The notes beneath the pieces are model-generated. The model had not been told where the DNA came from. It was given only the letters and a program-made list of their open reading frames with translations, and ran no database searches. From a bacterium (GTDB taxonomy: Bacteria > Cyanobacteriota > Vampirovibrionia > LMEP-6097), in assembly GCA_038146805.1 (NCBI GenBank), contig JAYQSH010000002.1, forward strand, positions 26,373 to 90,372: DNA of 64,000 bases. Reading direction: 5' to 3'. How positions within the stretch are numbered: the stretch's first letter is position 1; each line of letters begins with the position of its first letter. This document shows positions 1 through 29,661 of this stretch, one piece after another. The translations under genes were made by a program, and so were the position numbers.

Positions 1-2
1 AT

Positions 3-791: not shown

Positions 792-815
792 ATAGTCACC
801 TCGTTATTAGTTAAA

Positions 816-914
816 GGGCGTGCTTCCAAACCCGTAATAAGTATCTCGAGTCTTTAGATTTGGGCATAAGTAGGGTTTGGTTAGACACGCCTAAAAAAAG
901 AATTAAACACCGTC
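816..914 (-). repeat. Dispersed REPIN-like element with inverted ends GGGCGTGCTTCCAAACCC / GGGTTTGGTTAGACACGCC
   Basis: Its reverse complement matches nearly base for base a module of the 286-bp tandem unit at 11998-12829. It lies between convergent genes. Confidence 0.85.
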
Positions 915-1017
915 CCTTAAATGATCTCTAGTATTCCTTGAAGATCCACTGAAAATGAGACTTCGTCTATTTCTCAATCGTGCTCCAAATTTGCAACTTG
1001 TCTCAGGGAGAGAATCC

Positions 1018-3687: not shown

Positions 3688-3744
3688 ATTAATATAAATA
3701 TTATTCCCTCGTAATGCTCTTTTTCAAGGCTTTAAGATAAATCC

Positions 3745-3762
3745 AATACTGAGCTTAGTATT
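3745..3762. promoter_or_regulatory. Near-perfect 18-bp palindrome (candidate operator) between divergent clpB and elbB
   Basis: AATACTGAGCTTAGTATT has one mismatched pair and sits just upstream of the elbB -10 hexamer TAAAAT (3768-3773). Confidence 0.35.
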
Positions 3763-3779
3763 TGCAGTAAAATTAAGAC

Positions 3780-4469: not shown

Positions 4470-4608
4470 TTTATTAATGACCCTTTGAAAAATGCGTCTT
4501 TGTTGATTTTTCAACCCTGATCTTAGAGTGCAACTTTGCTAAGCGAGTGAATCTTTATTTTTTTTGTTAAGCAGATTACAGCTCAAAACTTTCTCTTTTA
4601 GGGGATCC

Positions 4609-5901: not shown

Positions 5902-5938
5902 TAAAGCTAATTATAGCTTATAGTTCAAATTGCTAAGC

Positions 5939-7342: not shown

Positions 7343-7348
7343 ATTAAA

Positions 7349-8272
7349 TCAGTATACCAAAGCTCCAGAATTTGAAACTCTGCACTTTATGCTCTTGCTC
7401 ACAATATCTTTTTCGAGCCATTTTTCTTTGGCATAATTTTCAATTATTTCAGCATCTTTTGTATCTTTGACAAAAACTATTAAACTGGCACCCGAGCCTG
7501 AAATGGTTGCCGCAATAGCATTGTTGTTTGCAAAATCTATAATTTCAGTAGCGTTTGGTATTAAGTTAAGGCGGGCTTCTTCGTGTATTTTATCTTGGAC
7601 GCTTTTTTGAAATGTATCTAGGTCATTTGTTAAAACGGCACTTGTAAAAAGTGCGGCATTAGCAATATTAAAAATACAATTCTCAAGTTTTTGTTTTTTT
7701 TGAATTACTTTTCTTGCTTCATTTGTGTTTACTCTAAAGTTTTCTGGATAAAGCATTAAAATCTTTAAATCAAGATTCCAGTTGATTTTTTTGTAATGCA
7801 GTTTGTTGTTAAAAAAACTTACCAAGCAAAATGCCCCTAGCATACTTGCACAAACATTATCTGCGTGACCCTCTATGTTAGCGGCTTCTAACAGAATCTC
7901 CTCAACGGATAATTTATTACCTAGAAATTTATTTGCCGCAAGTAAGCCGGCTAAAACAGCAGTTGAGCTTGAACCAAAACCACCACAGCTTGGTATTTGA
8001 GCTTTTAGTTCTAAATCAATTCCGGGCATTTTATTTTTGCAGAGTTTTTTATAAAGATGACTAAAACTTTTAAAAACAAGATTTTTTTTATTGTTGACAA
8101 AAATATTTTCATCAAGATTTGAGTTGGCTTTAAAACCCGAGCTTGTGAAATTAAATATATACTCATTGTATAGATCTAAAGCAAGCCCAAAACAATCAAA
8201 ACCTGCTCCTAAGTTGGAGCTACTTGCGGGGATTTGAATTTTGATGCAATACGTCATATATATAGAATACAT
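7349..8272 (-). CDS. thrB: Homoserine kinase (GHMP family)
   Basis: IPASSSNLGAGFDCFGLAL, GGFGSSS, EGHADNV, ISGSG. Confidence 0.92.
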   Translation of the reverse strand: MYSIYMTYCIKIQIPASSSNLGAGFDCFGLALDLYNEYIFNFTSSGFKANSNLDENIFVNNKKNLVFKSFSHLYKKLCKNKMPGIDLELKAQIPSCGGFGSSSTAVLAGLLAANKFLGNKLSVEEILLEAANIEGHADNVCASMLGAFCLVSFFNNKLHYKKINWNLDLKILMLYPENFRVNTNEARKVIQKKQKLENCIFNIANAALFTSAVLTNDLDTFQKSVQDKIHEEARLNLIPNATEIIDFANNNAIAATISGSGASLIVFVKDTKDAEIIENYAKEKWLEKDIVSKSIKCRVSNSGALVY

Positions 8273-8316
8273 CTTTATCTATCTTTTTAATATGCTTTGA
8301 TGTTATTATCAAAAGT

Positions 8317-8736
8317 ATGACTAACGATAAAAAACTTTATAATTTTACACAACTGTTACTAGAAGCATTGGATTTAGTAAGTAAAGCAAATCAAATGCCA
8401 GAATATATAATCGCAAAAGGGAGCAGTTTAAATGCGATAAAAATTGTTGAAGGTTTTAAGGAATATTCTGAAGAAGATAAGAAAGAAGTTTTTAAAATAA
8501 TTTCTGAAAAAAAATCTAGTGCGCAAGTTTTAAATGTTGTTGGTTATTATTCAAAATCTGATTTATATAATCTTATCAACAGTCGTAAAGATGCACTGCT
8601 AAGATTAGTAGATCCAATGTTTTCTAGAACTTTACAAAAATATATTACAATTGCAAACATTGCAAATGATTTAAATGAAATTTTTGCAAATCTACTACAA
8701 GTTGAAGCAGCTTTAATGAATGAAAGAAAGAAATGA
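8317..8736 (+). CDS. Hypothetical protein
   Basis: 139-aa ORF, preceded by TGnTATTAT and overlapping the next gene. Confidence 0.65.
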   Translation: MTNDKKLYNFTQLLLEALDLVSKANQMPEYIIAKGSSLNAIKIVEGFKEYSEEDKKEVFKIISEKKSSAQVLNVVGYYSKSDLYNLINSRKDALLRLVDPMFSRTLQKYITIANIANDLNEIFANLLQVEAALMNERKK

Positions 8737-9595
8737 TAATCAAAAAAAATTACTTCGTTCTTGTATCAAAGCCAAAGATGGCTGGTGGGCAACTTTGTTT
8801 GCTGGACCTGTTGCAAACAGGCTCTTAGAACCAATTTGCAACTTAAAATTTTTAACTCCAAATCATTTGACTTTATTTTCTTTGTTTATAGGATGTCTTG
8901 CCGCTTATTGTTTTTTTAAGGGTGATAATAGTTCTTTATTGTTAGGAGCAATTCTTGTGCAATTGTCTTTTGTTGTTGATTGTATGGATGGTCAATTTGC
9001 TCGTTACAGTAAAAAATTTTCCGACTTTGGTGCTTGGCTTGATCGGATTAGTGATAGAGTAAAAGATTTTTTGTATTTTTTTTCTTTGGCTTGGGGTTTT
9101 TACACACAGCACTCTGAGAGCTTTTCTTATGGTTGTACACCCTTTGTAAATTTCATTTCTAACTTTATTGACAAAGATCAATTTTTTACGATTAATCCAA
9201 ACTTGCATATGATTACCATGCAGGCAAAACAAGTTGAAACATGGTTGGTGTTTCCAATTGCTATGATTGCTATGTTTGCTGTGTTTTTGATTGATTACTA
9301 TGTCAACCAAGATATGAAATTTCCAACTGCAAAAAAAACAGAGAATAAAGTTAAACAAGTTCAGCAAAGAAATATTTTTTTAAGATTCTTTAAAATCTTT
9401 TTAACTTTTGGCTTAAGTGTTTACAGGTCTGTACCTATTTTGAGGTTCAATATTGGTGAGCAAGCATTGTTGATTTCTTTGTTTTGTGCTTGTGGTGCGG
9501 TTTTTAGCTTGTTAAGTTTCTTTGCATTATTGGGAAGCTTTTATATTATTTATTGGCCTTTTGCTAAATATTTTGGTTTCACCGAAGATAAATGA
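8720..9595 (+). CDS. CDP-alcohol phosphatidyltransferase family membrane protein
   Basis: LTPNHLT and the signature DCMDGQFARYSKKFSDFGAWLDRISDR; several hydrophobic segments. Confidence 0.9.
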   Translation: MKERNDNQKKLLRSCIKAKDGWWATLFAGPVANRLLEPICNLKFLTPNHLTLFSLFIGCLAAYCFFKGDNSSLLLGAILVQLSFVVDCMDGQFARYSKKFSDFGAWLDRISDRVKDFLYFFSLAWGFYTQHSESFSYGCTPFVNFISNFIDKDQFFTINPNLHMITMQAKQVETWLVFPIAMIAMFAVFLIDYYVNQDMKFPTAKKTENKVKQVQQRNIFLRFFKIFLTFGLSVYRSVPILRFNIGEQALLISLFCACGAVFSLLSFFALLGSFYIIYWPFAKYFGFTEDK

Positions 9596-9709
9596 AAATA
9601 GTTTTAACTTTCTAAGTTGTTTTAGGCATAAAATATACATATTCTTAACAATATAAAGCCAAGTATTTGCTAGTATTTTAATTCGCGAGGTTAATAACTC
9701 CTCTGCACT

Positions 9710-9752
9710 GTAAACTGAAAACTGAATAGTAAATAACAATATTTTGTTACAA
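9710..9752 (+). other. 5' arm of the 16S pre-rRNA processing stem
   Basis: GTAAACTGAAAACTGAATAGTAAAT...TTTTGTTACAA is complementary to 11581-11617. Confidence 0.7.
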
Positions 9753-9918
9753 ATTCTTGTCAATATAAATTTGAGTAGGCCAGTTAGTGAGCTTGTAAGT
9801 AAATATAGCTAGAAACTTACAAAAGCAAAATCTAACGGCGAAAGTTAGTTTAATTATCAGCTCTTTGAGTTGGTAATCAAAAGTATTAAACTCGCGATTG
9901 TTTCAATCGCTTCGTTCT

Positions 9919-11415
<1,497 letters not shown>

Positions 11416-13729: not shown

Positions 13730-14686
13730 ATGACCACAGTACTCACAACTACTAATAAACCTAATACTAGTGGGCCAAGCAAAAGTCCAGCGACTAATTC
13801 TGCAGTTGTTTCAAAAGAGAGCACAGAACAAAAAAGATCTACAGGAACTACTCTTGCAACAGCTGTTAAAGAAGGTGCAACAGATCTTGCAAAATCTGCG
13901 GCTTCTGCGTCTCAAGAAGTTATAAGAGACAGTGTTACGGGTGGAGTTAGTAAAGCTTTATTACATTCGGTAATGCCTTTAAGAGGTATTTTGATGTCTA
14001 ACCCAATTGGTTACTATGGTGCAAAACCATTGATAAATTATTTAGCACCAAAATTAGATAAATATTTAGCTGAAAATAATATTGAACTAAATATGGATTC
14101 TAAAAAAATGTTACATCAACTTTTGTTTGGTGATATCCATGAATTAGACACAGACATTACTAAGGCTCTTGAAGGTTTCTTTGAGAAAGCAATTCCTCAA
14201 AATATCAAAGAAGCATTTGCAAGTGGTAGCTTAACTAAAATTGCTACTGCAACTGGTGTTAGTTTATCTAGTGGTGCCGGTGGTATTTTAAATTCCTTGT
14301 TTAATGTGCCGGGTAGTAATAAATTTACAAGTCCTTTTAAATTTTTAGGAATGAAAATTCCTTTTATTAATAAGCTTGCTCCTAAGTTTCAACCTTGGGC
14401 AGCTGGCGCTGGTATTTTTCTTTTTGGTGGTTTCATTTTAAAAGGTGTTTCAAAACTCTTTAAGGTAATTTTTGCTGGTGGAGTTCTTGCTGGTGGTGCT
14501 GCAATTGCAAAAAAAGTTTTCAATAAAATGTCAGCTCCTCCTCAGGCTCAAAACTCAGGAATTGGTGGTGCAATGAATGCACTTACAAGTATGGCTGGTG
14601 CTGGAAATCCTGCGGCGGCTCAAAACCCAGTTGCTGGCATGCTTGGTGCCGCTAAGGGTTTAGCTGGTATGTTTGCTAAGAAATAA
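13730..14686 (+). CDS. Hypothetical Ala/Gly-rich protein with C-terminal hydrophobic segments
   Basis: 318-aa ORF with typical codon usage and a clear promoter; no family recognised. Confidence 0.75.
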   Translation: MTTVLTTTNKPNTSGPSKSPATNSAVVSKESTEQKRSTGTTLATAVKEGATDLAKSAASASQEVIRDSVTGGVSKALLHSVMPLRGILMSNPIGYYGAKPLINYLAPKLDKYLAENNIELNMDSKKMLHQLLFGDIHELDTDITKALEGFFEKAIPQNIKEAFASGSLTKIATATGVSLSSGAGGILNSLFNVPGSNKFTSPFKFLGMKIPFINKLAPKFQPWAAGAGIFLFGGFILKGVSKLFKVIFAGGVLAGGAAIAKKVFNKMSAPPQAQNSGIGGAMNALTSMAGAGNPAAAQNPVAGMLGAAKGLAGMFAKK

Positions 14687-14753: not shown

Positions 14754-17700
14754 ATGGTCATTGATCTATATTTCTTGGCAAAAACTTGTGCTAATGATGA
14801 TTCTTTAACTAATTGGGCTAATACAAAAGCCGCTGATAACTCTCGTCAGGATGTTTTAAGTTATAACCTAGAAAAATTTAAATTTAAACAGCAAGATCAA
14901 TTTCAAGATTTTCTCAAAGAAGTCACTTATGAAGTAAAAGAAAATGATTTTCTGCGTAAATTATTTGCAGAATTTTCCGGAGATAAAATTGACGTAGAAT
15001 TTATTGATGATTATCATCATTGTTTTTTATATGATGATAAAAAAGCAGTTCTTTATTTAGATGCAAAGATTGATACTAATTTAACGCCATTGTATATTTT
15101 TGCTTTTTATTTTTCTTTAGCTAGGCAAAAATATACAGCAAATCAGATCTATGCAAAGTTTTTTGATTTCTTAGAAAGTTTTGAAAGTTCACAACTGCAA
15201 AAAATTGTCAGTTATTTAAATTCTAATGCCTTCGATCCCGGTGCTTATTTACAAGAGTTTTTAAAGCTAGTTTTAAATGCAAAAAAACATAATTTAAAAT
15301 CTGAAAATACTGAAAAATATAGACAAACACAGCTACTAAGAAATAGAGCGATTGCAGGTCAGCTTCCTTTTGATTTAAAAGCTTTTAGTTTTTTGTTAGA
15401 AGATTGTTCACAGTCTTTTAGTGCAGAAATTAATCAAGAGCTTTTTGATTTGATAAATGAAAGTTATGATCACGAGTATGCAAAAAAATATTATAAAAAT
15501 TTGTGTCGTGCTTTAAATATTATTGGTGTCAAAGTTGTGGCACAACGTGGCTCAAGAGTAGCTCACGAACAAGGACCTTTACTTGTAAATGCTAAGCAAT
15601 TGAGTTTTGCTGATGAATTTAAAATCCAAGTGAAAAAAACTAAGTCACGTATTGAAGAGAGCTTTTCAAAACTAAAAGAAAAGCTTAAAGCTTTTGACTT
15701 AGATTTTGTCAATGATCTAACTGATATCTCAATTAAATTGGATTCATTAGTTTATGTAACAGAGCTTAAAGATATTCAATTGGCACGCTTCAAAAAAGAA
15801 TTAATTGCAGTAGAAAAAACTTGTTCTGCTTTTACGGCAAAGGTAAAAAAATATATTAGAGAGTTTATTTTACAAGAAAAACAATGCCCAGAAAATCTGC
15901 TTGATGAAACTCAGGGACTGCTTTTAGAGATAGATGAGTTCCTGCAAAAGAGTTTTTTTGATTTGGCTAGTGATGCTGCTAAACAAAAATCAGAATTAGC
16001 AAATTCTGTTATTTATTTACAGCGTCTTTCTGCACGCTCTGGTCATTTTTTGGCAAGGATTTTACTTGGGCAAAAGCTTTATGTCGAAACAGATGAAAAT
16101 TCTGAAATCCAGCGCTTAGATGCAATTCCCTTTACTTTTGTTTGTCCTGATTTAGATTTAGTTGCTTCTGGTATTAATTCTTTTTTTGAAAATGCTTCAA
16201 TTTCAATTTTGACAGATAAAGATACAGGCAAGCCTGAAATCAAGTGGGATAATGCAGAAGATTTGGCAAAAACTTTAGCTCCATCTTTGTTTCAAGCTAT
16301 TATTAATAAGCAAAACAAATTAAAAGATGGTGATTTGTTCCACTATCAGCTTGAAACAACCTTGCTTGGTCCATTGATAGATTTGTTTAAAATAATTTTA
16401 GAAAATGAAATCTCTAATATAGCAAGTGTTTCAGAGTATGTGAAAACTCTAGGACCGAATGCTTGTTACCAAGAGCTTTTAAAGCAATATATAGATAAGT
16501 ATGAAGCTGAAATTTGTCATTCTGCAAAATTTATAAGCAAATTTTATCTATTAGAAAATAGTCTTGAAGAAATAATACTTCTTGAAAAACTTAATGAACA
16601 AAAAGCATTACTAGAGCTTTTAAAACATCATACTGATGTACAAAAAGATTGTTTTGCATTAATGGCACAACTAAAAGCAGGTAAGATTACAGAGTCTAAA
16701 TTAGAAGCTATTTTGCAGCCTAACAAAAGTTCAAAAGAAAAATTAGCAGAGCTACAAAAACATCTCTATGACAAGATTGACATTGTTTCTTTAAAAAGAG
16801 AAATCAAAGATAAACTCTATTATCCAAGTTCGACTGCAATAAAAGAATTTTTTGTTGATAATCCAGAAATAAAAAAAGTTACAGTAAGCTCAAACAAAAA
16901 TATTAAAGACGCAGATTATTTCTATAATTTTTCAGTTGCACCTAGTAGGATTGATTTTGGTAAGCATGTAGTTGCATCGGTAACAACCCTTATGGGAAGA
17001 ATGATTGGTGCTGACGATAATGAAGCTTTGAAATTGGCAAAAAACTATATTGATTTTGTTAGTCAAAGTCGAAATTCTATTTTTAGTACTGCATCTGAAG
17101 CAGGTTCTGTTAAAGTTATTGAAAATACTTGTAGAGCAATCCAATACGCAAAAGCAATTAGTTTTCAAGGTGCTTTTCAATCTTTTGCGATTGATGGTAT
17201 GCAGGCAAGACAAACGATTAACTCAAGAAATACTCCAGAAGCAGGTTTGCATGTTATGGAATTTGCGACCATGGCTTCAACTGGTTACTGTATTACTAAA
17301 GAGCCTTTGTTTATAATTTTGGGATTAAGTTTAAAATCCAAAAAAATCTTTGAACAAATTGGTATTTTTGATGAAACACTGCAACTTAAACTGCAAACTT
17401 TTTTTGAGAATCTTATTAGTTCTAAATCACGTTTTCAAACACAATTAGACTGGGAGCTTCATGCTTATGAAGAGATTGCATCTTCTAGTTTGATTCAATC
17501 TTACATTGCTGATGCAAGATACAAAATATTACCAAGACCAGAAGCCTTTTTAGCCCTATTAAAGTTTATGGCTCATGAGTCGCCGGACCAAAAAATATCA
17601 GCTCTTTATAATGAGTTTTCAGCAAACTTAATTGAAATGACAAGGGTTATTAATGAAACAGGAATTATTCAAAGAGTGCAACTTGTTAATAATCAAATTT

Positions 17701-20447
17701 CAGCTAGTGATAAAGACTATTCAAAACTTAAAATCTTGATGAATGCTTCTTACAAGGGTAATGTATCCGATGAAAGAGAAAATGCGAATCAATATATTTT
17801 AGCTTTCTTATTAAATAAAAAACAATTCCTAAAGAATAGTTCAAATGAAACTATTAAATCTTTAATTGATTTCCAAGCAAGTAAAAATAGTTTTCCTCAA
17901 GAAATTAAAATTTTTGATCCTTTTGTTGATAAAGATTTATTTATGAATGGAGTACTAAAACAAATTGCACAAGATACTTTGACAAAAATCCAAAACTTGC
18001 AACTTAGTTCTAGTTTAGAAATGAAATTTTTAGAAGCATGTTTTATTACTTATGGTGCAAATGTTGATCTATGGCAAAATCTAAGTCTAGATGACAAAAA
18101 ACAAATCAAAGCTTTTGCTGAAGATTTGCTAATTACTGAAATTTACCTCAAAGGTTTTTATACTGAAGCTGACTGTGCTTTTCAAAATTTAGATATTGCT
18201 TTTTTAAATTCAGATCATGATGCACAAAAAAATATTTTTAAAAATATGGTGCGTCTCAAAGAATTAATGCTTATTAATAATCCTGATTCTTTATTGACCT
18301 TGGTAGATAATCCACAGCAAGCAAAAAAACCATTTTTAGACTTTGATTTATCTCGTGAATGGCTTGCTCTAGGCGGAAAGATAGTCTCGCATATGATTGC
18401 TCCTGAGCTCTATAAAAAATGGCTTAGTGATATTAATGCACAAGCTCATTTTGCCAAACTTTTCTCACAATTTTTAATCTATAAAACCAAATACAGCGAT
18501 GAAGTCTTAGCCAATAATGATGATTTCATTTCTTTAAAGTCAAATTTAACTGATTACTTTGTTGAAATGAAAAAATATGCTGATTTAAGCAGAGATATGC
18601 TTTTACAAAAGTTTGAAGAGGCAAAAGAATTAGGCTTAGCAAACAAAGTCTTGTCCCGCTATTCTTTTACATTAAAAAGCTATGCAAAACTAGTAAACTA
18701 TCAAGAATTTGAGGATATTAATTTTGTAGATTGGCTATGTCTAGGTGGAAGATGGGTTTTAAATGGAAAATCTCAAAAAGAAATAGATTATATTATTAAA
18801 ACTTTTGAAGATAGTCATAAAAAAGTTGGTAAATTAGGTTACCAAGTTTTGTCTGATTTTGTTGCGGCGAGTGATGACTTAAATATCACTCGTAAATATC
18901 GAATAATTGAAAATGCTGGTTCTACTAAAGAAGCTGATTTGTTACTTACGAATGCCGCTGATACTTTAGAGCAAAGAGAAACTTTACAAGAAGATTTTTT
19001 GATGTCTAGTATTCGCTTTAGATCTTTGTTTGATTTTGATTCAAAGTATTCTAATCTTGATCAAAAAGCACTGAGCCTCAGTTGGGATCAAAGTGTGCAA
19101 GATCTAATGACTTTGATGAAAAACTCTAAGTCTAGTTTAGATACAAAAAAAGAATTTAATTTGCGTTTTGCAAAAATCTTAAAAATCACTCATTGTTTTT
19201 CAAAATATTATGAAATTTATTTACCTGCTATCAGTAAAGAAGTTGATCGTTTTATAAAACAAAGAGCTTTTTGTGAAAATTCAATTCAAGTGTTTTTTGG
19301 TGATCATAAAAAATCTCAAGGTCTTTATAAAGAGCTTGTGGATAGAATTAAAAATTCTGAAAGGCTTGAAGCTGAGTTAGACAACGTAATCAAACTTGCT
19401 GAGATGCTTTATTTTAATTATTTGTTGTTTTTAACTATTAATGTTGCTGATGAAAATGAAATGATAAATAAGCTAGCCATATTTTTTGATCAGTATTTAA
19501 ATGTTCATGAAGAAGATTATCCGCCTTATATGTTTCATAGTTTATGTGCGGGTTCTGCTTTTGGGTTTGACCAAAGTTATTTTTATGATACAAATCTTAG
19601 AGTAAAAATGTTTAAACTTGCTTGTAAGTCAGGTATTCATCTTTATAAACAATTATATTTTTTAATATCTCAAAAAACTGTGCTTGCAAAAACAAGTGAC
19701 GAGTATAAAGATTCATTGATTGGTGATTATGAAAATGGTTTAATGCCTTTTTGTTATCAACATGAAACTGTTTGTATTGAAGAAAGGCTTTGGGATTGTA
19801 TGCGTGCATTGAGAAATTTTGTACGTAACTATCATGATAGACACCCTTTACCGGTAGTCATTAAATCTAAAGATGCCACGATAAAAAAACTATTTGCTCT
19901 TGAAGATGACGTTGAATTAGTATGGCTTTGTGGTGTTGCTAATCCTGGAAAACATTCTTGGGACTTGAATTGTGTGTTTAGATCGCCAGAATTACGTAAG
20001 GTTTTTGTAAGTGCAAATTCTAAATACTCTATTGTTTCTGTTTTTAGTCCTTATTTAACTGCAAATGGTGAAGTCAAACAAATTTATACTGCTTTTGAGC
20101 CTGAAAAAATCAAAGGTCTAGATATCTTGTATCCATTTAAGAATTCAGTCTTTGAAGAAAATAAATATGGTTTTATTCATGCAATTGTTGATCTGCAAGG
20201 TCAATTGGTTAAGCCCGATATTACTATGGCGGCGCATACTCACGAACAATATGTATCAAACTTTTTGAGAGATTTAAAAGTGCCAGAAGTTTGGTCTTTA
20301 TTGAGTATGCGCCAAATGTATGCAAAAACGGAGCTTGCAAAAATTTTAGAAACAGCTAATTTATCAACTCTAGCTCAAGTAGAATTTTTGCAAAAAGAAT
20401 TTGATAATAAAGACGAACTTAAAATCCACCATAGAAAAAAGAATTAA
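14754..20447 (+). CDS. Giant multidomain protein with an embedded UDP-glucose/GDP-mannose dehydrogenase-like region and the start of an ATP-grasp domain
   Basis: Ordered motifs GDLFHYQLETT, SVAPSRIDFG, VKVIENTCR, GYCITKEP, SYKGNVSDERE, IFDPFV. The C-terminus QMYAKTELAKILETANLST resembles an ATP-grasp entry helix. Confidence 0.65.
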   Translation: MVIDLYFLAKTCANDDSLTNWANTKAADNSRQDVLSYNLEKFKFKQQDQFQDFLKEVTYEVKENDFLRKLFAEFSGDKIDVEFIDDYHHCFLYDDKKAVLYLDAKIDTNLTPLYIFAFYFSLARQKYTANQIYAKFFDFLESFESSQLQKIVSYLNSNAFDPGAYLQEFLKLVLNAKKHNLKSENTEKYRQTQLLRNRAIAGQLPFDLKAFSFLLEDCSQSFSAEINQELFDLINESYDHEYAKKYYKNLCRALNIIGVKVVAQRGSRVAHEQGPLLVNAKQLSFADEFKIQVKKTKSRIEESFSKLKEKLKAFDLDFVNDLTDISIKLDSLVYVTELKDIQLARFKKELIAVEKTCSAFTAKVKKYIREFILQEKQCPENLLDETQGLLLEIDEFLQKSFFDLASDAAKQKSELANSVIYLQRLSARSGHFLARILLGQKLYVETDENSEIQRLDAIPFTFVCPDLDLVASGINSFFENASISILTDKDTGKPEIKWDNAEDLAKTLAPSLFQAIINKQNKLKDGDLFHYQLETTLLGPLIDLFKIILENEISNIASVSEYVKTLGPNACYQELLKQYIDKYEAEICHSAKFISKFYLLENSLEEIILLEKLNEQKALLELLKHHTDVQKDCFALMAQLKAGKITESKLEAILQPNKSSKEKLAELQKHLYDKIDIVSLKREIKDKLYYPSSTAIKEFFVDNPEIKKVTVSSNKNIKDADYFYNFSVAPSRIDFGKHVVASVTTLMGRMIGADDNEALKLAKNYIDFVSQSRNSIFSTASEAGSVKVIENTCRAIQYAKAISFQGAFQSFAIDGMQARQTINSRNTPEAGLHVMEFATMASTGYCITKEPLFIILGLSLKSKKIFEQIGIFDETLQLKLQTFFENLISSKSRFQTQLDWELHAYEEIASSSLIQSYIADARYKILPRPEAFLALLKFMAHESPDQKISALYNEFSANLIEMTRVINETGIIQRVQLVNNQISASDKDYSKLKILMNASYKGNVSDERENANQYILAFLLNKKQFLKNSSNETIKSLIDFQASKNSFPQEIKIFDPFVDKDLFMNGVLKQIAQDTLTKIQNLQLSSSLEMKFLEACFITYGANVDLWQNLSLDDKKQIKAFAEDLLITEIYLKGFYTEADCAFQNLDIAFLNSDHDAQKNIFKNMVRLKELMLINNPDSLLTLVDNPQQAKKPFLDFDLSREWLALGGKIVSHMIAPELYKKWLSDINAQAHFAKLFSQFLIYKTKYSDEVLANNDDFISLKSNLTDYFVEMKKYADLSRDMLLQKFEEAKELGLANKVLSRYSFTLKSYAKLVNYQEFEDINFVDWLCLGGRWVLNGKSQKEIDYIIKTFEDSHKKVGKLGYQVLSDFVAASDDLNITRKYRIIENAGSTKEADLLLTNAADTLEQRETLQEDFLMSSIRFRSLFDFDSKYSNLDQKALSLSWDQSVQDLMTLMKNSKSSLDTKKEFNLRFAKILKITHCFSKYYEIYLPAISKEVDRFIKQRAFCENSIQVFFGDHKKSQGLYKELVDRIKNSERLEAELDNVIKLAEMLYFNYLLFLTINVADENEMINKLAIFFDQYLNVHEEDYPPYMFHSLCAGSAFGFDQSYFYDTNLRVKMFKLACKSGIHLYKQLYFLISQKTVLAKTSDEYKDSLIGDYENGLMPFCYQHETVCIEERLWDCMRALRNFVRNYHDRHPLPVVIKSKDATIKKLFALEDDVELVWLCGVANPGKHSWDLNCVFRSPELRKVFVSANSKYSIVSVFSPYLTANGEVKQIYTAFEPEKIKGLDILYPFKNSVFEENKYGFIHAIVDLQGQLVKPDITMAAHTHEQYVSNFLRDLKVPEVWSLLSMRQMYAKTELAKILETANLSTLAQVEFLQKEFDNKDELKIHHRKKN

Positions 20448-21423
20448 AAATAGAAACTTGGATCATATAGATTTTTGGATTGTTAAAGCAAGTAAAGATT
20501 CAGGTGGTAGAGGAATTAGTACAAAGCTTCATCTTACAAATGACATCGACATGATTGTTGATTTTATTTTTGAAAAAACAAAAACTGATGATGTCGTTAT
20601 GCAAGAGTTTGTGCCAAATAATGCTAGAGCTTTTATAAATAATGATTTTTATCAAAATATTGTAAATTCTTTTGTTAATTCAGGAATTGCTATTGAAAAT
20701 GTTACACCTTATGAACAAATGTTTTTTGCTATGCGTGCCTTTCAAAGTATAAGTGGTATTAAAGGCTATTTGTTTTCTGTGAACATTGGCAATGTTACAG
20801 TAAATGCGGGTCAGGGAGCGAAGTTGTTCTATGGCGAACCTATAAAAATTATGCCAATGTATATAGCCGGAAAAATACAAACTCTTTTAGATGATGAAGG
20901 TGAAATAATTTTAAAAGAAGCGATACCAGCTCATGCTCAAAAGTTTGCTCGTGATAATGATATAAAAATTGTTGAAAATGTGATTGGCTCAAACAATTGT
21001 TTTATGCTTAATGGTTTATTTGATTATATTCCTTATTTATATGTAGAGCGTAATGATTCTGAAAATAATTTGCGAGAGTTTAAAGTTTTTGTTGAAGACA
21101 ATGCTTTTGGTGGTTTAGATTTTTACTATAATTATTTTTCAAAAAAGATTTTATTGCTCTCTGAAAAAAATCAAGAAAAAGCCGTGCTTGCACTTGAAGA
21201 GCTTTTAAAATCTTTTGCTAATGGCGAATGTACAGGGCCAGAATTAAAACTTGATATAAAACTTGCCAAAATTGAACTCAATAGTGGTTTAGGGCAAGCA
21301 AATTTATTGCAAAATGCTGTTGAAGCAGAAGCAAAGGAACAAAGAAATTTGTTTTTAGAATGGAGTGAAGATTTAGGTGCTATTGCCTATGCAAGTAAAA
21401 AAGCTCAAGAGAAATCTAGCTAA
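20401..21423 (+). CDS. ATP-grasp ligase-like domain, probably the frameshifted C-terminus of the 14754 ORF
   Basis: WIVKASKDSGGRGI, VVMQEFV, TVNAGQG, GLFDYI, KIELNSG. It overlaps the upstream ORF by 47 bp in the +1 frame and has only a TTG start. Confidence 0.7.
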   Translation: MIIKTNLKSTIEKRIKNRNLDHIDFWIVKASKDSGGRGISTKLHLTNDIDMIVDFIFEKTKTDDVVMQEFVPNNARAFINNDFYQNIVNSFVNSGIAIENVTPYEQMFFAMRAFQSISGIKGYLFSVNIGNVTVNAGQGAKLFYGEPIKIMPMYIAGKIQTLLDDEGEIILKEAIPAHAQKFARDNDIKIVENVIGSNNCFMLNGLFDYIPYLYVERNDSENNLREFKVFVEDNAFGGLDFYYNYFSKKILLLSEKNQEKAVLALEELLKSFANGECTGPELKLDIKLAKIELNSGLGQANLLQNAVEAEAKEQRNLFLEWSEDLGAIAYASKKAQEKSS

Positions 21424-21470: not shown

Positions 21471-22123
21471 GTGATGGGCGGAGATCTACAATATTTTAAA
21501 TTAAATTCAGTAAATCTTGCAGGTCAAGATTTAACTCCAATTGTTATTCCTGTTATCGGAGATACTGATAATAACAGGCCTTTAAAAATTGCATTTGCTA
21601 AATGGTTTGATCATCTTTTTAGTTATAGTTCTAAAGCAAAATCTCTGTCTCCATTACAATTAAGCCATGATAATACAACTGATCGGTGTTCTGTAGAACT
21701 TTTGCATGATAAAGAAAAACCTATTGAATTTTTATTGGCTTTTGTTAATGATAATAACAACACTCCAATAAATGCTAATCTTATTAATGTTAATGGTAAA
21801 ATTAATGAAAAGAGCCCTTTAGGATCTAATTTTAGTCGTGCAGTTGAGCTCGCTAATCCACATATTGAAGCTTTTTATGGAATACTTGAAAAAGGAAAAT
21901 CTTATGTCATTGGAAGAAATCAAGATTGCCAAATTAGATTAAAGGATCCATGTGTTTCTAGGGATCATGCACGCATAGTTGTTGATAAAGACGGAAAAAT
22001 TACAATTACTGATCTCGGATCTTCTAACGGTACTTTTGTTAATAAAGAGAGAATAAACGGTTCAACAGAAATTAATGAAGGAGATTTGTAAGATTTGGAA
22101 AACTACGCTTAAATTTTCTGTGA
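21471..22123 (+). CDS. FHA-domain protein (last strand frameshifted; ORF as given ends 22091)
   Basis: YVIGRNQDCQI..VSRDHARI..DLGSSNGTFVN..EGDL. Adding one G at ~22088 restores VRFGKLRLNFL-stop. Confidence 0.88.
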
Positions 22124-22157
22124 AAAAGATGATTGAAATCCTTTTTAGAGTTTCATG

Positions 22158-22319
22158 AATATAGACACTACTTGCAGTAATTGAAAAAATCGCACAAACG
22201 ATGAAAACATCAACAAAAGCTTCACGAGTAAAATTAAATGAAAAAAATAGTGGGGCAAATATAAAGAGGTTCTTTATATATTCTTTAGGTCGCAAAACTT
22301 TTACAAAAGCTAAATTCAC
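22158..22319 (-). pseudogene. N-terminal remnant of a UbiA-family (decaprenyl-phosphate phosphoribosyltransferase-like) prenyltransferase
   Basis: VLRPKEYIKNLFIFAPLFFS...ASSVYI matches the family N-terminus, and similarity stops where the ND..D motif should begin. Confidence 0.7.
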
Positions 22320-22396
22320 TATTTAATTTTAATATATTTTCAAAAAAACCTTGATATTGCTCTATTATTTAGGCTAATGCTAAGATACATATTTGT

Positions 22397-22843
22397 ATGG
22401 CAATAGAAAATTTACAAAATGAAAGCACAAAAAACCTTAGTTTGCTTGGATCAACTACCACTGCATATCCAAGCAACCCTGCTGAGGCAAAACTCGAAGC
22501 TATTCCCAATCTTTTTCAAGAAAATCATTATATGGTTAATCTCGATTGTCATGAATTTACCTGTCTTTGTCCGAAGACGGGTCAACCAGATTTTGCCAAG
22601 ATTTATATTAGTTATTTGCCAGATGAATTTTTAGTGGAATCAAAATCTTTAAAGTTATATCTTTTTGCTTATCGTAATGAAGGAATTTTTCATGAATTTG
22701 TTATTAATAAAATCGCAACTGATTTACAAAAAATTTTAAAAGCCAAATACATTAAAGTTGTAGGTGATTTTAGCCCGCGTGGTGGTATTGCAATAAAGCC
22801 TGTTGTTGAGCTTGGTGATAAGAGTTTAGCTAGCGATGGATAA
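22397..22843 (+). CDS. queF: NADPH-dependent 7-cyano-7-deazaguanine reductase (type I)
   Basis: EFTCLCPKTGQPDFA, ESKSLKLYL, FHE, FSPRGGI. Confidence 0.96.
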   Translation: MAIENLQNESTKNLSLLGSTTTAYPSNPAEAKLEAIPNLFQENHYMVNLDCHEFTCLCPKTGQPDFAKIYISYLPDEFLVESKSLKLYLFAYRNEGIFHEFVINKIATDLQKILKAKYIKVVGDFSPRGGIAIKPVVELGDKSLASDG

Positions 22844-23558
22844 TTTAGATATTAAAAAAGCCTTAGTTATTTTTTCTGGTGGTCAAGACAGTACCACTTG
22901 TTTGTTTTGGGCAATAAAAAAATTTGGCAAAGAAAACATCAAAACTATTAGTTTTGATTACGGTCAAAAACATGATATCGAGCTTGAGTCTGCAAAAAAG
23001 ATTTGTGAATTAACGGGAGTTGATTTTGATAAAGTCGAGATTAAGGATATTTTACGTTCTGCAAGCCCGCTTGTTGACAGCAAAGTAGAAATGGATCTCT
23101 ACAATTCTTGTGCTGAGTTTAAGCCCGGCGTGCAAAAAACCTTTGTGCCCGGAAGAAATATTTTGTTTTTAACTATTGCCGCAAATCTTGCATATCATCA
23201 CGGGGCAAAAAATATCGTAATGGGAGTGTGTCAAGAAGATTTTGGTGGTTATTATGATTGCCGCGAGCAATTTATAACAGAAATGCAAAAAGCTTTAAAC
23301 CAAGGTCTATTTGGTTTTGATGAGGGCTTACAAGTTTATACACCTTTAATGTATTTAAATAAAAAAGAAGCTGTTGAGCTTGCAATGGAATTAGGTGAAG
23401 ATTGTCTTGAAGCACTTGCTTATTCTCATACTTGTTATGAAGCTAAGTTTCCTCCTTGCGGCAAATGTCACTCTTGTTTGCTTCGCGAGCGTGGCTTTAA
23501 AGAAGCTGGTTTAAAAGATCCACTTGTAAAAAGGAGCTTAGCTTATGCTCTTAGTTAA
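22836..23558 (+). CDS. queC: 7-cyano-7-deazaguanine synthase
   Basis: FSGGQDSTTCL, FDYGQKH, FVPGRN, YYDCR, Zn ligands TCY..PCGKCHSCLLR. Confidence 0.96.
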   Translation: MDNLDIKKALVIFSGGQDSTTCLFWAIKKFGKENIKTISFDYGQKHDIELESAKKICELTGVDFDKVEIKDILRSASPLVDSKVEMDLYNSCAEFKPGVQKTFVPGRNILFLTIAANLAYHHGAKNIVMGVCQEDFGGYYDCREQFITEMQKALNQGLFGFDEGLQVYTPLMYLNKKEAVELAMELGEDCLEALAYSHTCYEAKFPPCGKCHSCLLRERGFKEAGLKDPLVKRSLAYALS

Positions 23559-24264
23559 CAAAAGTCAAGAAAACAAAGAAGCTTGCTCTACATTAGAAAT
23601 TTTTTCAACAGTTCAAGGTGAGGGGCTTGATTCTGGTGTACCGGCGATTTTTGTAAGGTTTCAAGGTTGTCAGGTGCATTGTTTTTTTTGTGATGAAAAA
23701 GATACTTGGCTAAAATCTGCAAATAATGCAGAACAAATTGAAGAAGATAAAATTTTATTTGCCATTAAAGCATTAAACAAAAACATCAAACGTGTAGTTT
23801 TAACTGGCGGTGAACCTACTGAACAGAGCTTAAAAAATTTGGTTAATTTATTGATTGCTAATGGCTATATAGTAAGCATAGAAACAGCCGCTACTGGTGA
23901 GTATCTTTCTGAGCTTTTTCAAGATTATCCTTTGGTGCAAGATGGCACTGCATCGTCATTTAAAAAAGTTTTTAATTTTACTTTTAGTCCCAAAGAAATT
24001 TATTCTCGCACCAAGATTGCCGATGAGCGTATTTGGCAGGAGTGTGATGAATTAAAGTTTGTAGTGGCAAATTCTGATGCCAAGGCATATTTATTTGAAA
24101 AAATCTTAGTGAAACTCAAAGCCTACAACAATAATTGTCCAGTTTATTTAACGCCAGATTGGTTTAATTTTGAAGTCAGTAAAGAAATGATTTTAAAGAT
24201 TTTAGCTGAGAATATAAGCAAATACCCTCAATTACGCTTGGGGATTCAAGGTCATATAGTAATT
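23545..24264 (+). CDS. queE: 7-carboxy-7-deazaguanine synthase (radical SAM), read through in frame into an unrelated downstream domain
   Basis: EIFSTVQGEG, VRFQGCQVHCFFCDE, LTGGEP, SIET, SPK, LRLGIQGH. No stop codon follows. Confidence 0.88.
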
Positions 24265-25530
24265 ATGTCTATTGAACAAGCACAAGCAAGGTTATATAAC
24301 GGACTACGAAATCTTAGTCCTGATATAGATGATAAGCAGGCTGATCAGATCTCAAGAGAATTTTTCTCTGGATTTATGGATAATGTAGTTAGACTAGACA
24401 AAGAAGATCCTCCTAATTTATTTAAAGTTGCAGATGCTGGTATTGAATATGCTAGAGGCTTGTTTGAACTTAAAAATCGTGGTGCTCTTGAAAATCAATC
24501 AGATATTATGGAGCTTCGAAGAGATGTCGCTGGTACAACTTTATATGAAGCAAATGCTACTTTGCATGCAAGTGCTTTTGATGCTATCGATAGTCTTATC
24601 CAGGATTCAAGTACCGAATCAACAGAAAATTTTGATACTCGAGATACTAAATTAAAAGAAGCTTTTGAACCAGTTATTATGCACTTAAGTGAAAAGCCTG
24701 ATGATTTCCAAGAGCTATTAAAGCTTTTTGATAATTTAGTAGGTGACCAAGCTGTCAGCTTCAGCACTAAAGATCTAGATGATGTTAAAACAGGCTTGTC
24801 TAAAGCTTTGGCTGATGGTGATATTAATGAGGTTTCAAAATTCTTAGATTCTATTAATAATGCTGGTGTTAAATTCTATTTGTCTCAGTATATGAAGACA
24901 ACTGCAATGCCTTTGATTGCTGCTGAGCACGGAGCAAAAGTTGCTTTGCAAACTGATAAATCTATTCAAGGACAATTAAGAACTGGTATCAATATAGCTT
25001 TAGGCTTTGAAGGATTAATCCCAGAAAGATCAGAAGCTCCTAATAGAGAAGAACTTGCTGTAATTCAAGAAAAAAGAGACTATATTGCTGATGCTTTAAT
25101 TGGTCTAGCTTCTGATGCTCAACGGTACAGTGCACAAATTCCTAATTTTAAAACTGAACAATTTATTGCTCAAGGTATAGCTGACCTTAAAGGTAGAATT
25201 GACGAACAATTTGGTGAAGGTGTTTCTTTGTATAAAGATGATTTAAAACTTGTTGCTGATCACTTAGAGGCTACAAAAGATATTTCTCAAGAAGAACAAA
25301 AAGCAAGTTTATCTAGTTTCTTAAATGATTACGGTAAGTTTATAGCACCTATAGCAGTCTTTATGTTAGGTCCTGTAATTTCAGGTTTAAGTATGATCCC
25401 TATTCTTGGTAAGCCATTAGCAAGGCTCACTGCACCACTTTTAAATAATGTTGAAAAATTTGCACCAGTTGCAGTTGGTTTATTAGCTGCTAATGCAGGT
25501 AATAAAGCTCCACGGGAAGCTGCTGCATAA
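24265..25530 (+). CDS. Hypothetical helical protein with C-terminal hydrophobic hairpin, in frame with queE
   Basis: An internal ATG (MSIEQAQARL) falls where QueE similarity ends; the architecture resembles the next gene. Confidence 0.6.
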   Translation: MSIEQAQARLYNGLRNLSPDIDDKQADQISREFFSGFMDNVVRLDKEDPPNLFKVADAGIEYARGLFELKNRGALENQSDIMELRRDVAGTTLYEANATLHASAFDAIDSLIQDSSTESTENFDTRDTKLKEAFEPVIMHLSEKPDDFQELLKLFDNLVGDQAVSFSTKDLDDVKTGLSKALADGDINEVSKFLDSINNAGVKFYLSQYMKTTAMPLIAAEHGAKVALQTDKSIQGQLRTGINIALGFEGLIPERSEAPNREELAVIQEKRDYIADALIGLASDAQRYSAQIPNFKTEQFIAQGIADLKGRIDEQFGEGVSLYKDDLKLVADHLEATKDISQEEQKASLSSFLNDYGKFIAPIAVFMLGPVISGLSMIPILGKPLARLTAPLLNNVEKFAPVAVGLLAANAGNKAPREAAA

Positions 25531-27618: not shown

Positions 27619-28565
27619 ATGAAGCTCAATACTTTTTCTAAAACGTATTATTGCTTTTAATACCACTACTTGTTATTGGTTCAATATTCTTTTATAAAAC
27701 AAAAAAAGAAAAGACAAAAAAACAGAGTATTTTTATTTAGAAGCGATTGATCGCTGGAATAAAGGTCATAAATCAAAAGCAGAACAATTTTATTGCTTCA
27801 GCGATAAAAAATAATGATCTTGCTGAGTATAACTATATTGCTTATAAATTTCTTGCTTATCAAAACAAAAAGACTTTATCTCATTCCTATATTAAAAGAG
27901 CAGCTGACTTAGATGAAATTAATCCTCTCTATCAATATAAAGCTGCAATTTATGCTGCAACAGAAGACTATAAAGTTTCATTAGATTATATAGAAGATGC
28001 TTTAAAACAAGATCCTAAGAATTGTCTTTATTTGAGCCACGAGGCAAGTATGTTGATGCGCTTAGATAAAGACAAAGAAGCAATGAATAGTTTTCGTGAA
28101 TGTTTGAAAAATGATCCTGCTTACGAGATGGTTTGGAATAACCTTGCTTTTCACAGTAGAAGGCTTGATGGTCACCAAAAAGCAATTGAAGTAATGCAAG
28201 AAGCAGTCACAGGAAATCCAGATTCTGCTTATCTTTGGTATCAAAAGGCTCTATATGAAAAAGAGCCTGATTTAATTGATGAAGCTGTTATAAGCCTTGA
28301 GACTTCTATTGATGTTAAGCCAGAACTTGGGAAACAGGCAGCCAAGCTTATACATAAACTAACTGGTAGAAACTATCAGGGTAAATACAAAGCAATAGTC
28401 AAAGGTTTAATGCAAGAATTGCCATTTAAATTGCAAGGCAATCATGTTTACTTGTAAACAAAAATTAGGGATAAAGCTGGATGGTTTTTACTTGATACTG
28501 GTGCAAGTACAATAATTATTTATGAAAGGTTTTTAAGAATTAATAAACTGAAATTGGCTCCTTAA
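27619..28565 (+). pseudogene. Disrupted TPR-repeat protein with a C-terminal retropepsin-like aspartic protease domain
   Basis: TPR-like helices in 27747-28457, a frameshifted hydrophobic N-terminus from ATG 27619, and in-frame GWFLLDTGAST after the TAA at 28455-28457. Confidence 0.7.
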
Positions 28566-28678
28566 TTTAAAAACACTGCTACACCTACTACTAATGCCGC
28601 ATAAAAAGTTCCCTTGTTTTTGAAATTTTTTGTTCTTATCTTCGTTTTGAGTATAAATTTTTTTTTACTTTAAATCTG

Positions 28679-28707
28679 TTTACAAAAAACGCTTTTATAC
28701 ATAATCT
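28679..28707 (+). promoter_or_regulatory. Candidate sigma70 promoter
   Basis: TTTACA-N17-TAATCT, 9 nt before GTG 28717; conserved in the paralog. Confidence 0.5.
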
Positions 28708-28716
28708 ATTAGTTAC

Positions 28717-29661
28717 GTGGCTATAAATGTAACTTTTAGTAATATCTCTCAAGCGAATTCAGAAATTCTGAAAGCTTTTAATTCTAATACTTCGGCAAAA
28801 GCGCTTGAGGCTTATCAACCTTTGACAAGCAAACAAAGAAAGCTTGAGAAGTTACGTGCTTTGCAAATTCTCAAAAAAAGTTCTGATTCGGCTACTTTAG
28901 CTGATATTTCACTTGAAACTGATTCTCTTGCTGTTGCACTAAAAAACGCTGAAGGAGCGACTTTGCAGGCAATGCTTAATTTGCTGAGTGCAAAAATGAT
29001 AGAGCAAAATAAATATATTTATAGCTCAAAAAACCAAGCTGAGGATATTAAAGCAAAAGTTAAACAAAAACTTGAAGAAAGACAAGAGCAACAACAAGGT
29101 AATAAAAAACAACAAGAGCAAGAGCAACAAGAGCCAGAAGAAAATGCTATCGATAAACTTGTTAATGCTGTTGTTACTTATTTTGAAGAAATTAGAGATG
29201 ATTTTATTGAAAAATATAAAAAGTTTTTGGATGCAGTTTCGCTGGAAAATCTACAAAAAGCTTTTAAAGATGGTGTTGATTTAGTTCGCCGTTATACCCT
29301 TGAGGCTCCAGTAGAGCTTTTTAATGAGTATGTAGTTGAGCCAATAAATGACTTTAGAGAAAATTTACAAAAACTCATTGAAAATTCTTTGCAAACAAAA
29401 GTAAAAACTGTTTCTAGTAAAACCTTTAGTGCAAATGATATTAAGTCGATGCTAAATAAGTCTTTTGTACAAAAACCTAGTGTCGCTCAAAGAAAAACTG
29501 TTGTACAAAAAGCAAAACATGGATTTGCTGTTGATAATGCAAAACTGGAATCTTCAATTGATACTATGAGTAATTCTTTGATTCTCAAAAAGAAAATTAA
29601 ATCAAGAAAACACCTTAAAGTTTATTCGGCTGATGAACTCAGACTTGCTCTACACTCTTAA
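28717..29661 (+). CDS. Hypothetical coiled-coil protein (intact paralog)
   Basis: 314-aa ORF with a Gln/Glu-rich middle and Lys-rich C-terminus. Confidence 0.75.
   Translation: MAINVTFSNISQANSEILKAFNSNTSAKALEAYQPLTSKQRKLEKLRALQILKKSSDSATLADISLETDSLAVALKNAEGATLQAMLNLLSAKMIEQNKYIYSSKNQAEDIKAKVKQKLEERQEQQQGNKKQQEQEQQEPEENAIDKLVNAVVTYFEEIRDDFIEKYKKFLDAVSLENLQKAFKDGVDLVRRYTLEAPVELFNEYVVEPINDFRENLQKLIENSLQTKVKTVSSKTFSANDIKSMLNKSFVQKPSVAQRKTVVQKAKHGFAVDNAKLESSIDTMSNSLILKKKIKSRKHLKVYSADELRLALHS

Follow-up and report, generated by a model that had tools for sequence, protein, structure and literature searches.

The 64,000-nucleotide window analysed here (contig JAYQSH010000002.1, positions 26,373 to 90,372, called C2 below) carries on its plus strand a gene of exceptional length. 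It appears as two open reading frames (ORFs): an ATG-started ORF of 1897 amino acids (14754–20447) and, overlapping it in the +1 frame, an ORF of 340 amino acids (20401–21423). The initial annotation placed both ORFs correctly and joined them into a single polypeptide of about 2200 amino acids that apparently links a UDP-sugar dehydrogenase to an ATP-grasp ligase. The single polypeptide stands, with a true length of 2222 residues. The +1 ORF is no feature of the design; it reflects a one-base indel in this assembly, and 30 other genomes of the order have one open frame. Among 5.8 billion proteins searched there were 44 homologs, nearly all of them 2130–2316 residues long and matching the query over its full length. 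The closest of them, P0003, is 99% identical, also has 2222 residues, and runs uninterrupted across the junction as ...KEFDNKDELKSTIEKRIKNRN...; it is encoded exactly by two independent metagenome contigs, from JGI and ENA (L030, at 1121–7789, and L031). When the window is aligned with these contigs across the junction there is one difference, AAAA in place of AAA at 20421–20424. Upon re-translation the frame moves by one base after K1890 and S1891 begins at 20425, so that the break falls between the N domain of the ATP-grasp unit and its ATP-binding domains. Among the 31 genomes of the order that were examined, the 30 others carry the ORF uninterrupted. We conclude that the two ORFs are one gene for a 2222-residue protein with a 1-nucleotide homopolymer insertion. 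Of this single-gene status, and of the architecture set out below, we are all but certain. A programmed frameshift, or a pair of overlapping genes, is ruled out because the near-identical alleles lack the extra A and the 30 other genomes have a single ORF.

If the broken frame is not the gene's normal reading, is it an error of the assembly or the mark of a pseudogene? As a frame check, about 63 conserved neighbour genes from related loci were aligned by tblastn with the window's own genome (2.06 Mb, 12 contigs). On contig C2, 4 of about 13 sampled places change frame, among them lpxB, an M16 peptidase and a GHMP kinase that is the partner of the giant gene (see below). On the other contigs, 1 of about 50 sampled places does so. 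This clustering of frame-broken housekeeping genes on one contig argues for consensus errors rather than selective decay, and the reading we favour, with some confidence, is that the frameshift at 20421–20424 is probably a consensus error of the assembly. That the gene is instead a genuine, recently inactivated pseudogene whose pathway is being lost from this genome seems to us rather unlikely. The break does part the ATP-grasp N domain from the ATP-binding domains, and the partner kinase is broken too, in at least three frames. However, the housekeeping neighbours of the kinase, lpxB and the M16 peptidase, are frame-broken as well; the breaks cluster on the one contig; a single homopolymer base is changed in a gene that is otherwise undamaged over 6.7 kb; and the environmental copies at 99% identity are intact. 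The pseudogene question concerns this one genome only and leaves untouched the question of what the protein does.

Two other places on the contig deserve mention. The stretch around the kinase, with its frame-broken lpxB and M16 peptidase, reflects either low-quality assembly or local gene decay. Within the window, at 27747–29661, two adjacent same-strand ORFs of 236 and 314 amino acids both match one 311-residue protein of the related locus L001 (tblastn coverage 1.6); they represent either a tandem duplication or one more gene with a broken frame.

Table 1. Coordinates of the giant gene, its modules and residues, and associated genes. Positions are those of the window unless a contig is named; aa, amino acids; AF2, AlphaFold2 model.
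Feature	Position	Strand	Evidence or remark
One gene, 2222-aa protein, stop codon included, 1-nucleotide insertion inside	14754..21423	+	intact in P0003, L030, L031
N-terminal module, aa 1–410: small beta/alpha domain and long helices; AQRGSRVAHEQGP invariant at 262–275	14754..15983	+	AF2, alignment
Rossmann-like N-domain, aa 411–545, with YVETD, FFENAS, HYQLETT	15984..16388	+	secondary structure, Foldseek
beta1 loop QRLSARSGH in place of GxGxxG	16020–16046	+	translation
Helical insertion 1, aa 546–720	16389..16913	+	helices 540–702 in AF2; 37% mean identity; also in distant relatives
Central (catalytic) domain, aa 721–860: APSRIDFG, N791, K849, E850	16914..17333	+	TIGR03026, NF040825, PF00984, hhalign
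S731 (central domain)	16944–16946	+	
K787 (central domain)	17112–17114	+	
C846 (central domain)	17289–17291	+	
TGYCITKE, holding C846	17280–17303	+	re-translation
Helical insertion 2, aa 861–985	17334..17708	+	AF2, clade comparison
Probable C-terminal domain, nucleotide-sugar-binding type, aa 986–1215: SYKGNVSDERE, IFDPFV, LNSDHD, VDNPQQ, ALGG	17709..18398	+	
All-helical middle region, aa 1216–1700 (485 aa)	18399..19853	+	AF2
Pre-ATP-grasp (N) domain, aa 1701–1890, beta-rich	19854..20423	+	AF2; Foldseek, about 440 columns to whole 290–314-aa ATP-grasp enzymes
AAAA run with one extra A relative to intact relatives; splits gene after K1890	20421..20424	+	alignment with L030, L031
ATP-grasp central and C domains, aa 1891–2222	20425..21420	+	Foldseek, motifs
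318-aa Ala/Gly/Ser-rich low-complexity protein, hydrophobic C-terminal part, directly upstream of giant gene	13730–14686		
FHA-domain protein (206 aa), then queF, queC, 661-aa ORF, downstream of giant gene	21471–25530		
Partner GHMP kinase, at least three frames: 186-aa N-terminal ORF, gap, 147-aa C-terminal ORF	contig C2:110534–111699		locus L083

What is the evidence for a dehydrogenase in the N-terminal half of the protein? The motifs on which the initial annotation relied lie where it placed them: GDLFHYQLETT at 526–536, SVAPSRIDFG at 727–736, VKVIENTCR with K787, GYCITKEP with C846, SYKGNVSDERE at 999–1009 and IFDPFV at 1053. Its remark that no GxGxxG loop is visible was likewise correct, the beta1 loop reading QRLSARSGH (table 1). 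Profile searches and structure prediction add the support that motifs could not. TIGR03026, the model for nucleoside-diphosphate-sugar (NDP-sugar) dehydrogenases, matches residues 722–855 with its positions 145–273 (E 1.9e-5), and NF040825, a model of archaeal UDP-N-acetylmannosamine (UDP-ManNAc) dehydrogenases, matches the window protein at E 5e-5. In six-frame scans, a TIGR03026 match falls within the giant ORF in 31/31 genomes of the order, with E down to 3e-15. That value is reached in a clade of shorter proteins (2130–2186 residues), where the match extends over model positions 133–348, well into the C-terminal domain. Helical insertion 2 is about 80–90 residues shorter in this clade; the stretch equivalent to residues 715–1075 comprises 281 residues there as against 361–371. 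The model of the central, dimerisation domain, PF00984, gives the window protein 12.3 bits, under the cut-off of 25.4, but matches 12 of 21 family members (best E 2.9e-7) and scores above the Pfam gathering score in distant colinear relatives (44.4, 39.1 and 27.2 bits).

In a profile comparison by hhalign with the bona fide Ugd of the order (E 2.9e-5), K787 and N791 fall opposite the catalytic Lys and Asn, C846-x-x-K849-E850 lies against Cys-x-x-Lys-Asp, and ASYKGNVSDER lies against AFKPNTDDLR. The C-terminal domain ends where that of Ugd ends. K787, N791, C846, K849 and E850 are invariant in 41 sequences, and the nucleophile motif of distant members reads GG(F/Y)C(V/I)PKDG. PF03720, the C-terminal UDP-binding domain, finds no match, although TIGR03026 reaches position 348 in the short clade and hhalign pairs the FKxxxDDxR-type motif. 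A global hhalign against Ugd is misaligned owing to the insertions, and neither the whole-family profile nor a profile of the dehydrogenase region of the short clade matches any PDB sequence. An internal duplication linking an N-terminal QRGSRVAH motif with the QRxSxRSGH loop was rejected, since hhalign finds nothing.

The AlphaFold2 model of residues 1–1199 (predicted local distance difference test, pLDDT, 73) contains a Rossmann-like beta-alpha-beta domain at about 413–540. In a Foldseek search with the N-terminal half, the best PDB matches are UGDH (BceC), the UDP-ManNAc dehydrogenase 4r16 (probability 0.96), the C. elegans and human UGDHs and GDP-mannose dehydrogenase. The dehydrogenase alignments cover the whole target over about 780 columns, as large insertions would require; some of the matches are to dehydrogenases of the Rossmann plus helical kind. 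Taken together, profiles, alignment and predicted fold indicate that the likeness is one of real NDP-sugar-dehydrogenase homology and more than chance, and the dehydrogenase-like part of the initial annotation is thereby upheld.

The C-terminal assignment is cleaner. All the motifs listed earlier for the second ORF are present (VKASKDSGGRGI, VVMQEFV, NAGQG, FDYI and IELNSG), and in the restored frame we place the ATP-grasp residues at K1911, SGGR 1916–1919, MQEF 1949–1952, R1994, NAGQG 2017–2021, D2090, D2167 and E2174-x-N2176. Assigned by motif and not by residue-level structural alignment, these are invariant or nearly so in the family and kept across the superfamily. GSH-S_ATP (PF02955) gives the second ORF 13.3 bits, under its threshold of 23, and the relative P0053 27.1 bits. 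The AlphaFold2 model of residues 1150–2222 of the intact allele has a pLDDT of 82 and a predicted template-modelling score of 0.66. With it, Foldseek retrieves GshB (1gsa, E 6e-5), RimK, VanA/Ddl, DcsG, PurK, LysX/ArgX and tubulin-tyrosine ligase at probability 1.0, with target template-modelling scores of 0.55–0.61 over entire ATP-grasp enzymes. As modelled, the C-terminus is a complete ATP-grasp of the GshB/RimK type with the three-domain fold, so that profiles and predicted structure bear out this half of the earlier proposal too.

The remaining regions are largely helical. The N-terminal module has no Pfam or PDB match, and its hidden Markov model (HMM) also matches the Omnitrophica and Thermoprotei relatives introduced below. 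Within the middle region, the half that we call mid2 (residues 1501–1700, with FFDQYLNVHEEDYPPYMFH, YQHE and RNYHDRHPLP) is highly conserved, travels with the ATP-grasp unit and has the widest distribution of any part of the superfamily. Mean pairwise identity is highest in the dehydrogenase central domain (75%, with 41% invariant columns), followed by the dehydrogenase N-domain (67%), the ATP-grasp unit (60%) and mid2 (60%); it is 36–47% in the N-terminal module, the insertions and mid1. The motif-bearing enzyme modules are 57–75% identical as against 36–47% for the helical parts. We found no hydrophobic segment in the 2222 residues, from which we take the protein to be soluble.

How old is this arrangement? 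The family alignment was divided into ten modules, and these were run on the distant matches that HMMER returned when 1.84 billion representatives were searched exhaustively. The order is N-terminal module, dehydrogenase N-domain, insertion 1, dehydrogenase central domain, insertion 2, dehydrogenase C-domain, mid1, mid2, pre-ATP-grasp and ATP-grasp. It is kept in proteins of 3063–4445 residues, one of them labelled Candidatus Omnitrophica (PIU42171.1), in a 2230-residue protein labelled Thermoprotei archaeon (RLE64815.1), and in many proteins of 2100–5600 residues. Since distant relatives keep the order, the insertions and the regions to which no domain is assigned are conserved parts of an old architecture. 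The initial annotation was right that long helical insertions separate the dehydrogenase motifs, but they are not mere separators, being themselves conserved modules of the superfamily. Its linkage of dehydrogenase and ATP-grasp in one chain is found in every full-length homolog. Ten more relatives, each distant or short, yielded nothing further in Pfam searches.

Within the order, each of the 31 genomes has exactly one copy of the giant gene; it was not found in an even sample of 400 genomes from elsewhere in the phylum. The titles of homologous loci read Caenarcaniphilales, Caenarcanales, Melainabacteria or Vampirovibrionia. Many metagenome-assembled records with the gene are titled ‘uncultured Gammaproteobacteria’ (for example L003, L006, L008–L010 and L012), likely a mislabel; gene content and similarity put them with the Melainabacteria records.

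Does the giant gene have a partner? A GHMP kinase of 420–505 residues, with GHMP_kinases_N and GHMP_kinases_C domains, answers this description. In five loci (L007, L008, L019, L020 and L022) it is the gene immediately upstream of the giant one. In the locus of the distant relative P0046 (L085), a 923-residue GHMP-kinase protein follows directly downstream with a 4-nucleotide overlap. In P0052, P0056/P0124, P0050 and P0127 the kinase forms a single chain with the C-terminal part of the giant protein; the Pfam model GHMP_kinases_N recognises it in P0052 and in P0056, and the source records name such fusions ‘galactokinase’. The kinase is present in 31/31 genomes of the order, while elsewhere in the phylum there are only weak matches to ordinary GalK-like proteins. 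In the window's genome it lies on the same contig, 63 kb downstream of the giant gene and about 20 kb past the right end of the window. By fusion, adjacency and shared phyletic pattern, the kinase is a consistent genetic partner of the giant gene. Neither this link nor the order-wide single copy figures in the initial annotation. Its nearest solved structure by profile is the N-acetylgalactosamine kinase 2a2c (E 6e-22), followed by galactokinases, with which it shares the GHMP domains. It differs from them in its altered galactose-binding signature, PGRISFSKHCDY in place of the GRVNLIGEHTDY type, and in its occurrence, in other phyla, as a fusion with the giant protein.

What might such a protein do? 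We picture a soluble multi-enzyme chain composed of the N-terminal module, a unit derived from a nucleotide-sugar 6-dehydrogenase, the helical middle region and an ATP-grasp ligase. The chain would channel a sugar derivative. The GHMP kinase would supply a sugar-1-phosphate or another phosphorylated precursor; the dehydrogenase unit would oxidise its primary alcohol by way of a thiohemiacetal and a thioester on Cys846; and the ATP-grasp unit would convert the acid so formed into an acyl phosphate and couple it to an amine, yielding a sugar-acid amide. Oxidation followed by amidation is the most economical chemistry that the sequences suggest, and we put it forward tentatively, as somewhat short of an even chance. 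For the explanation as a whole, a blend of the architecture, this chemistry and the artefactual frameshift, we regard the balance as even. More broadly, as a reading that we hold to be less likely than not, we suggest an ancient and as yet undescribed superfamily of cytoplasmic megaenzymes (about 2,100–5,600 residues), scattered through bacteria and archaea, in which a UGDH-derived cysteine dehydrogenase that lacks the hydrolytic Glu and the canonical NAD loop is hard-wired to an ATP-grasp and a sugar-1-kinase. Such proteins might carry out a novel activation or ligation of sugar acids, possibly with hand-off of a thioester, to a product not yet seen, and may be indispensable in Caenarcaniphilales.

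Several observations weigh against oxidation and amidation. No match to PF03721 was found in the window protein or in the family, and positions 1–130 of TIGR03026 are never aligned. The GxGxxG NAD loop is replaced by QRxSxRSGH, which is invariant and, in the form QRFSxRSGH, is kept in P0046, P0050 and P0052, Omnitrophica relatives included. Binding of NAD(P) is accordingly putative. Ser731, in APSRIDFG, stands where the Glu of (N/S)PE(F/R) is expected, and PSR is universal in the superfamily; neither alignment register yields a Glu in an (N/S)PE-equivalent motif, the PSR/PEF register itself being moderately certain. In human UGDH the Glu of this motif hydrolyses the thioester intermediate (PMC3265891), and its apparent loss would fit poorly with the simple release of a free uronic acid. 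Given this Glu-to-Ser change and the missing GxGxxG, that the protein makes a nucleotide-uronic acid is something we infer rather than observe. On the structural side, the Foldseek E-values of the dehydrogenase half are weak (0.03–0.1) and pLDDT falls to 30–40 over the catalytic central domain itself, which may reflect a missing dimer partner. The loci show no consistent link to a nucleotidyltransferase, a glycosyltransferase or an exporter. Finally, the broken frame of the partner kinase in the window's genome is compatible with real decay of the pathway there.

With the hydrolytic Glu systematically missing and the NAD loop non-canonical, other chemistries remain candidates. There are two versions, and under either the missing Glu would be a design feature. 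In a reverse version, a carboxylate activated by the ATP-grasp unit would pass to Cys846 as a thioester and be reduced, as in carboxylic-acid reductase; in a hydrolysis-free version, the thioester derived from oxidation would be resolved by an amine and not by water. From Caenarcaniphilales to archaea all members have Ser for this Glu, in the company of an invariant Cys, Lys and Asn; the role of the Glu in hydrolysis is documented (PMC3265891); and across phyla both modules are built into a single chain. On the other hand, the transfer of an acyl phosphate from an ATP-grasp to a UGDH-type cysteine is without precedent, the PSR/PEF register is no better than moderately certain and cofactor binding is putative, so that we consider such chemistry improbable.

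Could the ATP-grasp work on its own, as a GshB/RimK-like ligase of amino acids or peptides or a modifier of protein C-termini, with the dehydrogenase body as its sensor or regulator? Its closest structures are indeed glutathione synthetase, RimK, LysX/ArgX and tubulin-tyrosine ligase, and three representatives of about 700–800 residues (P0074, P0075 and P0101) consist of mid2 and ATP-grasp only. But these three may be contig fragments; no residues of the protein are under tighter constraint than the catalytic ones of the dehydrogenase, which is unexpected of a sensor; and the linkage to a sugar kinase points to sugar chemistry. We think this reading no likelier than the reverse or hydrolysis-free chemistry.

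That the protein is a large structural or organising scaffold descended from enzymes, an alternative raised in the initial annotation, is very improbable: the large helical insertions and helical middle region, the non-canonical NAD loop and the kinase as the sole operon partner seen would suit it, but the catalytic Cys, Lys, Asn and Lys-Asp/Glu and the ATP and Mg motifs of the ATP-grasp are invariant throughout the 41 sequences, other phyla and archaea retain them, and the motif-bearing modules are the most constrained (75% identity in the central domain against 36–47% in the insertions), which argues for an active enzyme.

How does an enzyme of this kind, on the preferred reading an oxidising and amidating one, compare with known systems? 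The UDPG_MGDP_dh family (Ugd/UGDH, the WecC/Cap5O-type 4r16, BceC 2y0c and GDP-mannose dehydrogenase 1mfz) has the same order of three domains, shares Lys-x-x-x-Asn, Cys-x-x-Lys-(Asp/Glu) and, as paired by hhalign, the (F/Y)K-x-x-x-x-D-x-R of the C-domain, and provides the best structural matches of the N-terminal half. Its members are about 420–470 residues long, whereas the unit described here has about 800, with two conserved helical insertions, QRxSxRSGH for GxGxxG and Ser for the hydrolytic Glu, all within a chain of 2222 residues. As a whole, the window protein scores 23.6 bits, far under the TIGR03026 cut-off of 189.8, and its length contrasts with the norm of about 400–480 residues. 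A normal Ugd of about 465 residues is also present in every adequately complete genome of the order (28/31 above cut-off). With ligases of the GshB/RimK/LysX/Ddl type, the C-terminus shares the three-domain fold, the Lys, the SGGR loop, the QEF hinge, N-x-G-x-G and the E-x-N Mg ligands. It departs from them in its sub-Pfam score, in an extra beta-rich insertion of about 75 residues before E-x-N, and in mid2, a dedicated and conserved helical N-terminal extension.

To our knowledge, the sole documented case of a UGDH-made C6 carboxylate being amidated by an ATP-grasp is the amidation of glucuronate in C. jejuni. In the capsule of this organism, glucuronic acid is amidated at its C6 carboxylate by Cj1438C, an ATP-grasp amidoligase domain, and the UDP-glucose dehydrogenase is separate (PMC11800379). 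This is the logic that the initial annotation proposed for the giant protein. The proteins are thus distinct members of a capsule locus, and the TupA-like ATP-grasp is fused to a glycosyltransferase. Compared by description, the giant protein has a GshB/RimK-like ATP-grasp fused to the dehydrogenase, a housekeeping context and a sugar kinase as partner. A general Pfam scan of the window protein gave no TupA-like match at E<=1, no direct comparison with Cj1438C having been made.

The initial annotation knew of no described protein of this architecture. None turned up in our searches either: no entry in Pfam, NCBIfam or the PDB covers the giant protein beyond weak domain matches, and full-text literature searches returned no description of the architecture or of Caenarcaniphilales biology bearing on it. 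The folds are known; what is new is the architecture, the two systematic changes to the active site, the partner and the order-wide conservation. A gene of 6.7 kb that is retained, once per genome, in all 31 sampled genomes of an order of non-photosynthetic relatives of the cyanobacteria must do something central there. The colinear pairing of dehydrogenase, ATP-grasp and sugar kinase, found also in sources labelled Omnitrophica and Thermoprotei, marks an uncharted sugar-processing pathway. With neither the hydrolytic Glu nor GxGxxG, the protein is a good test case for the repurposing of a covalent-thioester dehydrogenase. Automatic annotation would report the locus as a pair of hypothetical genes, or else as a ‘UDP-ManNAc dehydrogenase’, and would be wrong in either case.

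The remaining neighbours gave no operon clue and were rejected as such, being clade-dependent and of housekeeping type: LepA, LeuRS, RibBA, ATP synthase epsilon, SufE, LpxB, the M16 peptidase, queF/queC and an FHA protein flank the gene in one clade or another. The 318-residue protein directly upstream in the window occurs only in the closest relatives (L001 and L030, within the genus), is matched by no Pfam model and bears no relation to the kinase. In the 2130–2186-residue clade (L013–L016, L018, L023–L027), a conserved gene of about 500 residues (cluster 3, alignment A8) always lies just downstream on the opposite strand, followed by a 219-residue gene and a PHP-domain gene; the cluster 3 product is without likeness to ATP-grasp. 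A dedicated second ATP-grasp partner in the order was also considered and rejected. At the archaeal locus a neighbouring 717-residue protein has a weak ATPgrasp_ST match; in the order this neighbour gives a weak match in 1/31 genomes, and the PF14397 matches belong to the ordinary rimK operon, which is intact in the window's genome. At L085 (JGI Ga0105164_10000306, 1–9975), the 3063-residue P0046 is preceded on the same strand by a further giant gene of at least 4402 residues, which has no Pfam match and no similarity to the giant-protein module HMMs.

Elsewhere in the window, a complete 16S rRNA gene lies at 9919–11415 (Rfam 1564 bits). There is no 23S, 5S or tRNA gene within the 64 kb, so the rRNA operon is unlinked. 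In the 661-residue ORF that follows queC, a radical-SAM/4Fe-4S match, perhaps QueE-like, is confined to the first 120 or so residues and leaves some 540 residues beyond it.

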